Virus record (IMG/VR): IMGVR_UViG_2529292717_000013
Strand: one strand, 5' to 3'
From: a virus
Taxonomy: Duplodnaviria; Heunggongvirae; Uroviricota; Caudoviricetes
DNA length: 37,577 nucleotides
The notes under the pieces are model-generated. The model was given only the letters and a program-made list of their open reading frames with translations. It was not told where the DNA came from and did not search any database. The stretch's first letter is position 1; every line of letters starts with the position of its first letter. Of the stretch, positions 32,732 through 36,581 are shown piece after piece. The position numbers were made by a program, and so were the translations under genes.

Positions 32732-32992
32732 ATGTTCCGTTGTCCGCTTTGTGGCGCATCTGCCCGTATCCGCACCAGTCGTCCGGAAAATGATTCAAAC
32801 ACCGTGCGGCAAAAGTATTACCAGTGTAACAACCTGGAATGCGGCATAAGTTTCTCAACACTGGAAGCTTTCCATAAATTCACATCGAAACACGCCTCCG
32901 GCGTTCACTCATCAGAAGGTATCCCGTGGCATGAGCTGCCAGCTTCACACAGGGGAAACAATCAGATGAGTTTGCCTTTATCTCAGAATTAA
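32732..32992 (+). CDS. ogr: Ogr/Delta-type zinc-finger late transcription activator
   Basis: 86 aa; MFRCPLCGASARIRTSR...YYQCNNLECGISFSTLEAF matches the Ogr C-x2-C...C-x4-C pattern. Confidence 0.85.
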   Translation: MFRCPLCGASARIRTSRPENDSNTVRQKYYQCNNLECGISFSTLEAFHKFTSKHASGVHSSEGIPWHELPASHRGNNQMSLPLSQN

Positions 32993-33182
32993 CAGGCAGA
33001 ATTGCCGGAGTAACAAAAAAGCGATAGATTACGCGCGGGTGCCTTTCGGCTGATGGTCGGAGGGAATACCCGAAGGCCAGATGTGGAAAGGCCCCGGAAA
33101 ACATTTCTGTTTAACCGAGGCCCTAACCGTCTAACCTTAGCAAGTGATAGGTTAGCGCCTCCCTGAAAAAGGAGCAAGCGCT

Positions 33183-33323
33183 ATGTCGCAAAAATCGCTT
33201 ACGGCCATCACGTTCTGCGTGACGGCAATCCTCATCATCTGGATGCTGCACGGTTCGCTGTGCGAAATACGGATGAGCTTCTGGGGAGCGGAGTTTGCGG
33301 CGTTCTTACAGTGTAAGCAGTAA
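33183..33323 (+). CDS. hok: Hok/Gef-family type I toxin (small membrane protein)
   Basis: 46 aa (below the track cutoff): MSQKSLTAITFCVTAILIIWMLHGSLCEIRMSFWGAEFAAFLQCKQ, with N-terminal TM and SLCEIR / AAFL motifs as in Hok proteins. Confidence 0.7.
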   Translation: MSQKSLTAITFCVTAILIIWMLHGSLCEIRMSFWGAEFAAFLQCKQ

Positions 33324-33396: not shown

Positions 33397-33510
33397 CAAT
33401 GCCGTTCAGTTAGTTAAGGAATTGAGGTTCGATAGCCCGAACCTCGCGCAGAGGCAATATGACCGAAAGCCTGATTCCTTAATGCCCAAGATGAGTCTCT
33501 ATTCATAAAA
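33397..33510. repeat. left terminal inverted repeat of the cassette
   Basis: CAATGCCGTTCAGTTA...ATGAGTCTCTATTCATA; internally folds as TTAAGGAAT...[GAGGTTCG-ATAGCC-CGAACCTC]...ATTCCTTAA. Confidence 0.6.
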
Positions 33511-33732
33511 GCGCTTAACTACTCGACATTGGCGGTGTATCCCCCGCATTGTCTGAATGCCGCCTCTTACCTTTCGCGGTCAACTGACGACTTCTAGTTC
33601 TAGAACGCCTTGATTTTTTGTACTTGTACATTGAAAAATAACCATAAATTGTTAGCCTGTGCAGTAGACTCAGTGGCGGTAACTGGTCAGCATGAAGTGT
33701 AAAGTGAATAACGAAGCTCTAAAATTATAGGG

Positions 33733-34566
33733 ATGGTCATGAATAATAAGCTAAAGGTAATTGAGTTAAATAGTCTTGATCTGTTTCGTAAAGAATTACT
33801 AACTACTATAAAGCCAGAGAAAGTAGAGAAATTACTTAGATGGTATCTTCAATCATATGGCGGTGTTAATTTCAAGTTCGGTTATGACAGACCAATTTTT
33901 AGAGCGCGAAAGTGCCCAAATGAATGCGGATATAATAACATCAGTGAGATATATCCCCCTCCACCAGAAAAATGTAAAATAGGCCGAATGAATGATGATG
34001 GACAAGCTATCTTCTATGGCGCTTATAGTATCGGAACAGCTTTAGCCGAAATTAATGCAAAAGAAGGGGATTATGTTCACATAGCTCACTTTAAGATGCC
34101 GGAAAATTCAGAGTCTGGAATGCGATGTTTTGCTATCGGTGAGGTCTTTAATGTGTATCACGGTGTAAATACAATTTCAATTGAAGTGTTTAATGAAATT
34201 CGCGACATCATTAGCAGAATTGGTAAGGACGACATCCGAGCTTTGCTATCATATTTGTATATGGATGCCCTTTCTGCTGAGTTGCTTAATAGTATCAATG
34301 CCCATGAGGTAAATTATATTTACTCAAGAATTTTTTGCCGTCTTCTTCTTGATAAATACCCTGATGTTGATGGCCTTATTTATCCTAGCGCTAAAATAAA
34401 AGGGGCCTCAAATATCGCTTTGCGCACAGAAACAGTTAAATCGAGAATGCATTTAGTTGCTAATCTTGTGTTTAAAGTAAATAAAATTTATCCATATGGA
34501 ATAGTAGATTTCAGTATAGTAAAACAAGCCAAAGGACATACATCAGATGGGCGCATCGTTTGGTGA
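33733..34566 (+). CDS. RES-domain protein (putative NAD+-targeting toxin-like effector), solo
   Basis: 277 aa, AT-rich; GRMNDDGQAIFYGAYSIGTALAE and DGLIYPSAKIKGASNIALRT resemble the R...E...S motifs of RES domains (recalled). No adjacent Xre-type partner. Confidence 0.5.
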   Translation: MVMNNKLKVIELNSLDLFRKELLTTIKPEKVEKLLRWYLQSYGGVNFKFGYDRPIFRARKCPNECGYNNISEIYPPPPEKCKIGRMNDDGQAIFYGAYSIGTALAEINAKEGDYVHIAHFKMPENSESGMRCFAIGEVFNVYHGVNTISIEVFNEIRDIISRIGKDDIRALLSYLYMDALSAELLNSINAHEVNYIYSRIFCRLLLDKYPDVDGLIYPSAKIKGASNIALRTETVKSRMHLVANLVFKVNKIYPYGIVDFSIVKQAKGHTSDGRIVW

Positions 34567-34726
34567 GCCAAACTTTTAGTTAGCTGATTGAAAAACCGAT
34601 GCGTCAGTTTGCACTGCATGTGGTGTATGGGAAGCGCGGGCTTGTAGTGCAGGTCATTTCAGAAGAAGCTAACGAGAAAGCTTAGACATACTGTGACTAC
34701 TAAACAAGCAGAAAGCCCGTGTTTAT

Positions 34727-34746
34727 GGGGGGGAGGGGGGGGGGGG
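34727..34746. repeat. homopolymeric tract G7-A-G12
   Basis: Read directly; lies inside the cassette just internal to the right inverted repeat. Confidence 0.7.
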
Positions 34747-34785
34747 CAATCCCCACAACAGGCGATGTCGATTAGTTAATACACT

Positions 34786-34895
34786 TGTATGAATAGAGAC
34801 TCATTTTTGTGCATTAAGGAATCAGGCTTTCAGTCATCTTGCCTCTGCGCGAGGTTCGGGCTATCGAACCTCAATTCCTTAACTGAACTACATTG
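34786..34895. repeat. right terminal inverted repeat of the cassette
   Basis: Reverse complement aligns to the left repeat with a few mismatches and one 4-bp indel. Confidence 0.6.
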
Positions 34896-34906: not shown

Positions 34907-35093
34907 AGCTCTAAATGCAAAAATCCCATGAAACTGTGGGTATTTCATCACACACTGACACTGCTCTACCTTTCTATATGTATCACTCTAAACCAGTTAA
35001 TCAATTGGCACTTATCAACAACAAAAAATCTGATAAAATCAAAATGTTTTGTAACAAATTTCAGCTTGTAGTGTTCCAAAGGAGACGGATTAC

Positions 35094-35426
35094 ATGGCAT
35101 TAATCAAATGTCCTGAATGCCAGAAAGAGGTCAGCGATTCAGCATTATGTTGCCCTGCTTGTGGTAAACAACTGAAAAAACTTAAGCGTTCATTTTTTGG
35201 AAAACTCATTAAATGGGCTTTTATATTTTTTAATATTTTTATGATCTATACACTTTTAGTTGGACTAGGAGGCGCTGATGAAATAATAAACAATACCACA
35301 TCCGATGCCGAAAAAGCTGGGGCAGTTATTGGTACGGGCTTAGGTTTAATTGCCATTGGAGGCTTATGGGTTATTGGCGATATCATTATCGGAATTTTAG
35401 TATTTCTTACTAAACCAAAGGGATAA
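35094..35426 (+). CDS. zinc-ribbon membrane protein (N-terminal CPxC...CPxC, two TM helices)
   Basis: 110 aa; MALIKCPECQKEVSDSALCCPACGK then hydrophobic segments; AT-rich. Confidence 0.55.
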   Translation: MALIKCPECQKEVSDSALCCPACGKQLKKLKRSFFGKLIKWAFIFFNIFMIYTLLVGLGGADEIINNTTSDAEKAGAVIGTGLGLIAIGGLWVIGDIIIGILVFLTKPKG

Positions 35427-35430
35427 TAAA

Positions 35431-36324
35431 ATGAAAAATATGATTTTTTCTATAGGTGCATTATTTATATCAATTAGTGTACTGCCTGTTCACGCAGCAA
35501 CTGAACATAAGAATTTCAATGCAGTGCTCCAGTGCCGAGCGATAGAAAACAATAAAGACAGACTTTCTTGTTACGATAAGTCAATACAACCGACTCGAAC
35601 GAAAGTTGCTGACAAATTTGAAAGCAGGGATCAATGCCCTGATGAGAAAGATGATGACAAACGTTTATCTTGTTATGATCGTTTTTTTTCTCCAACATTT
35701 ACTCCATCTGTAAACTCAAAATCTAAAACGGAAAAGCTAGTAACAACAGAGGCTCAGCAACCAAATCTTTCTGAAATATCTAAATGCCGAGCAGAAAATG
35801 ATAAAGAAACCAGACTAAACTGCTACGATAAACTATTCCCACAGGATGAAGCTGTTCAATCTGAATCACAATTAGAGAAAGCCACAGATGCAGGAAAATG
35901 GCACACGTCCATTACTACATCGCCAATTGATGATTCGAAAAATGTAATTTTATCGTTAGAAAGTGATGATTATATCAGAACTCCATTTGGAGAAGCTGTT
36001 ACTCCCACTCTGTTTATAGCTTGCCGAGAAAAGAAAACCGAAGTATTTCTTAGTTGGGATGTATATTTAGGCCTTGAACAAACCAGCATGCTGTATCGTC
36101 TTGATAAACAGAAAGCAGTTGAAAGAAACTGGCTAATATCTACAGATACAAAGGCTGTTTTTTATAAAGGTAATGATATTGATTTCATAAGAAAACTTGC
36201 CAACTCACATAAAATGTACACAAAAATAACCCCCTATAATGAAAGCCCTGTAAGTGCAACTTTCAATTTAAGCGGCCTGTCAAATGCACTAAAACCGCTT
36301 CAAGATGCTTGTAACTGGAAATAG
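35431..36324 (+). CDS. secreted protein with three RL(S/N)CYD(K/R) repeats
   Basis: 297 aa; signal peptide MKNMIFSIGALFISISVLPVHAA; repeats DRLSCYDK, KRLSCYDR, TRLNCYDK; AT-rich; 4-bp gap to the upstream gene. Confidence 0.55.
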   Translation: MKNMIFSIGALFISISVLPVHAATEHKNFNAVLQCRAIENNKDRLSCYDKSIQPTRTKVADKFESRDQCPDEKDDDKRLSCYDRFFSPTFTPSVNSKSKTEKLVTTEAQQPNLSEISKCRAENDKETRLNCYDKLFPQDEAVQSESQLEKATDAGKWHTSITTSPIDDSKNVILSLESDDYIRTPFGEAVTPTLFIACREKKTEVFLSWDVYLGLEQTSMLYRLDKQKAVERNWLISTDTKAVFYKGNDIDFIRKLANSHKMYTKITPYNESPVSATFNLSGLSNALKPLQDACNWK

Positions 36325-36342
36325 TATATACCTCCCCAATAT

Positions 36343-36385
36343 CAGATGACAAAACGCCCGTGAAAACGGGCGTTTTGTCATCTGT
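36343..36385. terminator. long perfect hairpin (19-bp stem, GAAA loop), probable bidirectional terminator
   Basis: CAGATGACAAAACGCCCGT-GAAA-ACGGGCGTTTTGTCATCTG. Confidence 0.5.
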
Positions 36386-36581
36386 AACTCGAAAATGTGG
36401 TCATTGCGTGGACATACGATGATATAAATCCTTTTATATCAAAAGATTAAACCACTATTATTTTCCTCAACAAGGATTTTCACGTTTGTGTTACCTGTAT
36501 GAGACGAGAGTTAACCGGACAAGTGTGCCATAATCTCGCGGCCAGGCATACTTGCGAAGATTTCAGGTATAAGGATACGTA

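Follow-up and report, generated by a model that had tools for sequence, protein, structure and literature searches.

A zinc-ribbon membrane protein and a three-hairpin VasI/TagO protein encoded by a cargo gene pair at the attR end of a P2-like prophage

A gene pair inside the prophage end

We analyzed a 37,577-nucleotide stretch of DNA (IMG/VR record IMGVR_UViG_2529292717_000013; hereafter the window) that holds a P2-like prophage and the host gene flk, and we focused on two adjacent open reading frames (ORFs) on its + strand, ORF1 (35094-35426; 110 amino acids; PHROG 6586) and ORF2 (35431-36324; 297 amino acids). Only 4 nt lie between the stop codon of ORF1 and the start codon of ORF2, and the G+C content of both genes is 0.36, as compared with 0.529 for positions 1-33000 of the window and 0.523 for flk. 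The tight coupling and the marked AT-richness pointed out in the original prediction, a reading of the sequence made before this analysis, were therefore borne out. That reading had placed the pair between the prophage site and flk, and here the result was different. The attachment (att) sites were mapped by BLAST comparison of the pdxB-flk junction of Escherichia coli K-12, where these genes are 98 bp apart, with two sequences, the window and the left prophage end of strain CH4804, which carries the same prophage. In the left flank the match extended to position 249 of the K-12 query, and in the right flank it began at position 228, which corresponds to 36459 in the window. This 22-bp overlap represents the duplicated attachment core, derived from the 5' end of pdxB and the pdxB-flk junction, and it locates attR at 36459-36480. 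It follows that all of the DNA from the integrase gene (1-1002) through position 36458 is inserted DNA. An island standing between the prophage and flk was rejected as a candidate, as attR lies 3' of both genes; the gene order at this end is D, ogr, a hok/sok-like locus, a gene for a RES-domain protein, ORF1, ORF2, attR and flk. Thus, the pair was indeed acquired horizontally, not as a separate island but with the prophage itself as its vehicle.

The pair was also present in phage genomes. In the packaged genome of Xuanwuvirus P88_4B11 it was 99.7% identical and lay between ogr and int, adjoining attP; it was likewise found in the Escherichia phages 500465-2 and PhiR44_2, in Citrobacter phage PhiSM (about 94% identity) and in Klebsiella phage 3LV2017 (66%). 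Its location inside the att boundaries, its presence in a packaged genome, its deviant G+C content and its variable presence among similar phages identify the pair as a cargo ("moron") operon of a P2-like temperate phage (Peduoviridae), carried between ogr/hok and the attachment site.

Comparison with the allele of sequence type 131 (ST131), which is 94.6% identical, gave ratios of nonsynonymous to synonymous substitution rates (dN/dS) of 0.19 for ORF1 and 0.16 for ORF2. These values indicate purifying selection and therefore that both are real, constrained genes. Within ORF2 the ratio was 0.37 in the half containing the repeats described below and 0.07 in the C-terminal half. Upstream of ORF1, a Shine-Dalgarno sequence (AGGAG, 35081-35085, + strand) was read 8 nt 5' of the ATG codon, and a consensus scan proposed a candidate sigma-70-like promoter, TTATCA-16-TAAAAT with an upstream TG, at 35012-35039 (+ strand), about 55 nt 5' of ORF1; its match to the consensus is weak, and such sites were no more frequent in the region than in shuffled sequences. 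No Rfam match was obtained upstream of ORF1. Downstream of ORF2, reading of the sequence revealed a 38-nt inverted repeat, GATGACAAAACGCCCG-TGAAAA-CGGGCGTTTTGTCATC (36345-36382, + strand), with a GC core followed by a run of T's, which was not listed by a simple scan. From its sequence, this repeat is likely a bidirectional intrinsic terminator that closes the operon.

Distribution of the pair

The pair was detected in 240 of 5426 complete E. coli genomes, in 66 of them at an identity of at least 99% and in 174 at 90-95%, as compared with 1179 genomes carrying the ogr-hok end; the ogr-hok block was found 5' of the pair in every E. coli copy examined. In UTI89, in an O111:H8 strain and in strain 99_0849, whose prophages occupy other att sites, host genes come directly after hok, except for a single short hypothetical ORF in between in 99_0849. 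This comparison of related genomes, which had been proposed together with the original prediction, established that the pair is accessory and therefore not a housekeeping family conserved at this locus. The E. coli carriers comprise human and animal isolates, ST131 included, and the pair or its relatives were also present in plant-associated and environmental Enterobacterales (Dickeya, Brenneria and Pantoea). In Enterobacter mori and Izhakiella the pair was kept in decayed prophage remnants.

As the pair is located 3' of ogr, the late-gene activator, and in the same orientation, it could be regarded as an accessory of the phage life cycle, aiding lysis, release or injection from the periplasm of the producing cell; combinations of an inner-membrane and a periplasmic protein do recall the spanins. 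We consider this explanation very improbable, however. The pair is missing from about 80% of the E. coli genomes with the same ogr-hok end and is therefore not needed for the life cycle, and a complete set of lysis genes (holin, endolysin and LysB/LysC) is already encoded by the prophage. Moreover, the AT-richness of the pair and its own terminator are moron-like, and its maintenance in decayed remnants also argues against such a role.

A fragment of the prophage comprising ogr, hok, ORF1 and ORF2 was also found on a 146-kb E. coli plasmid, p103605_146 (L004, 7232-9248), where ORF2 is frameshifted and shows a change of Cys47 to Tyr.

ORF1 is a small zinc-ribbon membrane protein

ORF1 contains a CxxC-x10-CxxC motif at residues 6-23 (C6, C9, C20 and C23) within a zinc ribbon spanning residues 1-27. 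In 31 relatives C6, C20 and C23 were invariant and C9 was conserved in at least 90%, and the score against Pfam Zn_ribbon_3 was 23.7 bits, just under the cut-off of 27. Two hydrophobic stretches were recognized by hydropathy at about residues 38-62 and 75-107. An AlphaFold (AF2) model placed membrane helices at about 34-66 and 71-105, following a basic juxtamembrane stretch. The second helix is glycine-rich, AGAVIGTGLGLIAIGG, and the protein ends in a T(K/R)PK motif. With its two conserved CxxC knuckles and two hydrophobic stretches, ORF1 is a zinc-ribbon membrane protein, as had been predicted; it consists of an N-terminal zinc ribbon and a glycine-rich two-helix membrane hairpin in the inner membrane, and the ribbon probably faces the cytoplasm. 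A fold search of the model against viral structures gave no significant match.

Small inner-membrane proteins with two helices are also found among DrpB (YedR) and the TM2-domain proteins. They resemble ORF1 in the motifs preceding the first transmembrane (TM) helix (RSxxGK...W) and following the second (T-R/K-P-K/R). The TM2-domain proteins encoded next to two-repeat VasI genes (see below) share the N-terminal zinc ribbon with ORF1, whereas DrpB lacks it. The membrane part of ORF1 scored 18.7 bits against the DrpB/YedR family NF038392 (cut-off 50; E 0.0016), the alignment with K-12 DrpB by hhalign had a probability of 25.6% (E 7e-4), and a PF28000 match on an ORF1 relative was rated "weak". 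The profile match is thus too weak for a claim of homology to DrpB, though a distant relationship is conceivable.

ORF2 is a VasI/TagO family member with three hairpins

No characterized family had been recognized for the secreted protein encoded by ORF2. This protein is, in fact, a clear member of Pfam VasI (PF11319), with 91.5 bits against a cut-off of 26.5 (E 6.7e-26), its residues 118-296 spanning positions 1-184 of the 184 of the profile, and RefSeq names it "type VI secretion system-associated protein TagO". Against the NCBIfam VasI equivalog TIGR03360 it scored 78.8 bits, under the cut-off of 124.2. A sequence search against solved structures yielded no meaningful match for ORF2. That its function was left open in the original prediction agrees with a 2026 review in which TagO/VasI is given as "Unknown" (PMC13584744); in PHROGs both proteins of the pair fall only in families of "unknown function", and a literature search by their RefSeq protein accessions retrieved no papers.

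The anticipated signal peptide was recognized in the sequence at residues 1-22 (35431-35496, + strand; MKNMIFSIGALFISISVLPVHA/AT), with a probable cleavage after VHA. The three RL(S/N)CYD(K/R) repeats were also found, as RLSCYDK, RLSCYDR and RLNCYDK at residues 44, 78 and 128, but they are not evenly spaced as had been stated, the gaps being 34 and 50 residues. Each motif cysteine is preceded by another cysteine 12 residues before, giving the pattern Cys-x11-RLxCYD. Across 63 ORF2 relatives the motif was invariant or nearly so and is therefore not due to chance. The eight cysteines of the mature protein form four conserved pairs (35/47, 69/81, 119/131 and 198/294); such complete pairing is expected of a periplasmic, disulfide-bonded protein. 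We did not find a lipobox or an outer-membrane or surface-export signal in the ORF2 sequence.

An AF2 model of ORF2, built from the 63 relatives, showed three helix-turn-helix hairpins joined by low-confidence linkers and followed by a confident C-terminal beta domain (pLDDT, the predicted local distance difference test score, of 76 for residues 151-160 and 87-96 for residues 161-297). Hairpin 1 comprises residues 29-51 (35515-35583, + strand; C35...RLSC47YD), with modeled helices at 29-35 and 41-51, and hairpin 2 comprises residues 63-85 (35617-35685, + strand; C69...RLSC81YD), with a modeled helix at 75-85. Hairpin 3, at residues 113-135 (35767-35835, + strand; C119...RLNC131YD), is common to all relatives; it corresponds to positions 1-20 of the Pfam VasI profile, and its residues C119, R128, L129, C131 and D133 are invariant among them. 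The relatives have one hairpin (about 210 amino acids), two (about 250) or three (about 297), and it is hairpin 2 that is missing from the two-repeat forms; the ancestral unit is the one that lies closest to the beta domain. The beta domain itself (residues 152-297; 35884-36321, + strand; PHROG 1848) contains the conserved C198 and C294 and has an IalB-like fold. Fold relatives occur in T4-like phages. ORF2 is therefore an exported, disulfide-rich member of VasI/TagO, with three disulfide-stapled hairpins on flexible linkers and an IalB-fold beta domain, and of the identity and architecture of the pair as described here we are highly confident.

The resemblance to IalB (PDB 3dtd; PF06776) brings in a second alternative, namely that ORF2 is an IalB-like periplasmic or surface protein serving adhesion, invasion or robustness in the gut, and that ORF1 is its DrpB-like partner in the membrane, perhaps at the septum of dividing cells. 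ORF2 does show a weak similarity to Pfam IalB (E 0.0012), to which may be added the weak likeness of ORF1 to DrpB/YedR, and human and animal isolates often carry the module. We regard this host-interaction or envelope-fitness role as quite unlikely. ORF2 is only 17% identical to IalB, which lacks the RLxCYD hairpins, and scores 19.4 against a Pfam threshold of 22.1, so that the IalB match, like that to DrpB, falls under the curated cut-off; the mechanism of IalB is itself unknown. Furthermore, the lack of a lipobox or of an export signal for the outer membrane or the surface is at odds with a surface protein, and the presence of the module in Dickeya, Brenneria and Pantoea argues against a mammal-specific role.

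The repeated unit extends beyond this family. A profile of the 31-residue hairpin, searched against 1.84 billion representative proteins, retrieved 173 proteins, in which the unit occurs one to six times. A Pfam scan of 90 of these 173 assigned 56 to VasI, five to Sel1 repeats, three to phospholipase A1 (OMPLA), one to a TonB C-terminal domain and one to pentapeptide repeats. The occurrence of the hairpin on such varied exported proteins identifies Cys-x11-RLxCYD as a mobile and widespread module of exported proteins.

VasI genes within and outside type VI secretion clusters

The experimentally studied member of the family is VCA0118 (VasI) of Vibrio cholerae. This protein is exported and is dispensable for the secretion of Hcp and VgrG-1, but without it amoebae and E. 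coli are not killed with full efficiency (PMC3166118). ORF2 has in common with it the signal peptide, the N-terminal Cys-x11-RLxCYD hairpin and the C-terminal beta domain with its Cys pair, and differs from it in having three hairpins instead of one, in falling under the NCBIfam equivalog cut-off and in being preceded by a coupled zinc-ribbon membrane gene at the attR end of a P2-like prophage rather than in a type VI secretion system (T6SS) cluster.

A third explanation is therefore that the pair is a phage-carried T6SS accessory, in which an extra VasI/TagO copy tunes the T6SS of the host and acts as a fitness or virulence conversion gene. The clear membership in Pfam VasI, the RefSeq name and the increase in killing efficiency conferred by VCA0118 in V. 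cholerae (PMC3166118) speak for it, and Magaziner et al. tabulated the PhiSM copy (ORF1 in the numbering of that phage), without experiments, as "T6SS VasI family protein" cargo, placing it among T6SS-related virulence cargo (PMC6456863). The genomic context, by contrast, led us to consider this explanation improbable, as does the score of ORF2 under the equivalog cut-off. No T6SS gene is present in the window, and the close relatives examined were all located at the ends of P2-like prophages and not in T6SS clusters. We collected 31 species-level loci from GTDB genomes. Those of enterobacteria contained P2 tail, D and ogr genes together with ORF1. In the 20 non-enterobacterial ones, whose VasI proteins were 26-49% identical, neither P2 markers nor the zinc-ribbon partner were found in the neighborhood, and no T6SS family was among the 25 commonest Pfam families of their neighbors; these neighbors include scattered Abi_2, Abi_alpha, SIR2, AAA_21 and N6_Mtase genes. 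VasI-domain genes were also present in unrelated temperate phages of Brucella, Roseibium, Pasteurella and Klebsiella. In two of these, Brucella phage BiPBO1 (gp67; L058, 2471-3076) and Klebsiella phage ST11-VIM1phi8.1 (L059, 2426-2929), the gene lies directly 3' of the repressor gene on the same strand. Genes that are expressed in the lysogen are classically located in this slot directly downstream of the repressor.

Photobacterium phosphoreum has a one-hairpin VasI gene (L016, 8001-9513) with no T6SS context, located about 500 bp upstream of a gene of the LprI lysozyme inhibitor family.

Linkage of the two proteins

The order ORF1-ORF2, with a short gap or an overlap, was found at P2-like prophage ends of Klebsiella, Raoultella, Enterobacter, Dickeya, Brenneria and Salmonella. 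In addition, two natural fusions were identified. In an enterobacterial prophage, P0050 (L011, 6001-6732), the zinc ribbon is fused directly to the signal-anchor of VasI, and a 347-residue ORF of Desulfobulbaceae (L040, 6392-7435) comprises two TM helices, a zinc ribbon, a further TM helix and the VasI beta domain. These independent fusions of a zinc ribbon and one or more membrane helices with a VasI domain indicate that both proteins are linked. The two-repeat VasI form in E. coli adjoins a different small protein, in which a CxxC..CxxC zinc ribbon is combined with two TM helices (TM2 domain).

In Pantoea (L013-L015), cueR and copA flank a solitary, intact relative of ORF1 with 70% identity. 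This site is used by P2-like prophages: in L015 a P2-like integrase gene comes just after the ORF1 relative, and in L011 a P2-like prophage end abuts copA. The lone gene of Pantoea may have been left behind by a prophage end and become domesticated. A copy of ORF1 with 66% identity in a member of the Pasteurellaceae, Haemophilus paracuniculus (L012), suggests horizontal transfer.

A possible envelope complex of the lysogen

Considering all of these data, the explanation that we tentatively favor as a whole, with a confidence somewhat short of even, is that of a phage cargo pair forming an envelope complex expressed in the lysogen. ORF1 and ORF2 would work as one unit of the inner membrane and periplasm. 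We base this proposal on their translational coupling, their co-inheritance across Enterobacterales, the analogous zinc-ribbon 2-TM neighbor of the two-repeat form and the two independent fusions. The unit would be made in the lysogen and would alter events at the envelope, the likeliest being superinfection exclusion or defense; its targets might be incoming contractile injection machines, that is, phage tails and possibly T6SS, met in the periplasm or at the inner membrane. The slot that the pair shares with hok/sok and the RES-domain gene hints at expression in the lysogen and at defense, as do the repressor-adjacent VasI genes of BiPBO1 and ST11-VIM1phi8.1, and the defense-like genes near the distant relatives and the fold relatives in T4-like phages are consistent with a defensive role.

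An analogy can be drawn with known exclusion pairs, such as Imm and Sp of T4, or rexAB of lambda, located downstream of the repressor. The features in common are a small inner-membrane protein and a periplasm-facing protein, both phage-encoded, accessory and variable between related phages; in addition, two other temperate phages have a VasI-domain gene immediately 3' of the gene for the repressor. The difference is that our pair has no sequence or profile similarity to known exclusion or defense proteins. From this context a role in exclusion or defense appears possible, although somewhat doubtful; among the functions suggested in the original prediction (immunity protein, adhesin or envelope stress module), an exclusion or immunity-like one would fit the context best.

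Several observations weigh against this proposal. The PADLOC-DB v2 profiles matched neither ORF1 nor ORF2, nor the RES-domain protein; the PHROG families of both proteins are likewise devoid of an assigned function, and no phenotype is on record for any phage-borne member of the VasI subfamily. Each of the defense-like neighbors amounts to one or two matches among 91 ORFs, without a background rate, and expression in the lysogen is deduced from gene position, with a weak promoter match. ORF1 and ORF2 are not always linked: Pantoea and Haemophilus have solitary ORF1 relatives, Pantoea coffeiphila has a three-repeat VasI gene directly after ogr without ORF1, and the membrane-protein gene next to the two-repeat VasI gene is convergent with it, so that they share no operon. 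Finally, the sole experimental data for the family, those on VCA0118, favor T6SS killing efficiency and not protection (PMC3166118).

A more specific version of this proposal, which we consider unlikely as it stands, is that the pair constitutes an unrecognized envelope exclusion system, widespread in phages, that senses or blocks the tails of myophages and/or T6SS spikes in the periplasm, with the hairpin as a docking module. Were this true, the docking module would be common to OMPLA, TonB C-terminal and Sel1 proteins, and it would hint at the role of VasI/TagO in T6SS clusters.

Neighboring variable segments

The block upstream of the pair (32732-33323) comprises ogr (32732-32992, + strand) and, directly after it, a hok/sok-type type I toxin locus with a hok-like ORF of 46 amino acids (33183-33323) and a sok-like RNA (33037-33196), whose Rfam match of 43.6 bits is under the cut-off of 59. 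The slot between ogr and attR is not among the hotspots named in the available portion of a 2026 preprint on P2 defense hotspots.

Between hok and ORF1, a 1.5-kb segment (33397-34895) carries the RES-domain gene (33733-34566; Pfam RES, E 4.5e-12), which has no Xre-type antitoxin gene next to it. The ST131 allele of this prophage end lacks the segment, which is bounded by inverted repeats of 78 nt (33412-33489 and 34807-34884) that are 96% complementary; by BLAST they extend over 125 nt at 91%. A poly-G run of about 20 G lies at 34727-34747, just inside the right repeat. The segment looks like a mobile or invertible cassette.

A second variable slot was found between D and ogr in four loci (L003, L007, L056 and L057), where the cargo differs by prophage: a 1023-nt hypothetical gene, an alpha/beta hydrolase, a PIN-domain protein or a YecA-family protein.

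Conclusions

In summary, the pair represents a phage-borne form of a family that has been named but not explained, with a tripled hairpin and a dedicated membrane partner. VasI/TagO is a T6SS accessory protein still without an assigned role, and our results highlight that, in several bacterial orders, temperate phages repeatedly carry its domain as cargo at sites remote from any T6SS. As the pair occurs naturally in the cultivable phages P88 and PhiSM, it offers a simple system for the role of this domain in the envelope. If the exclusion function is true, the pair would add a new envelope-level defense to the cargo repertoire of P2-like phages; if not, it would represent one more conserved phage moron.

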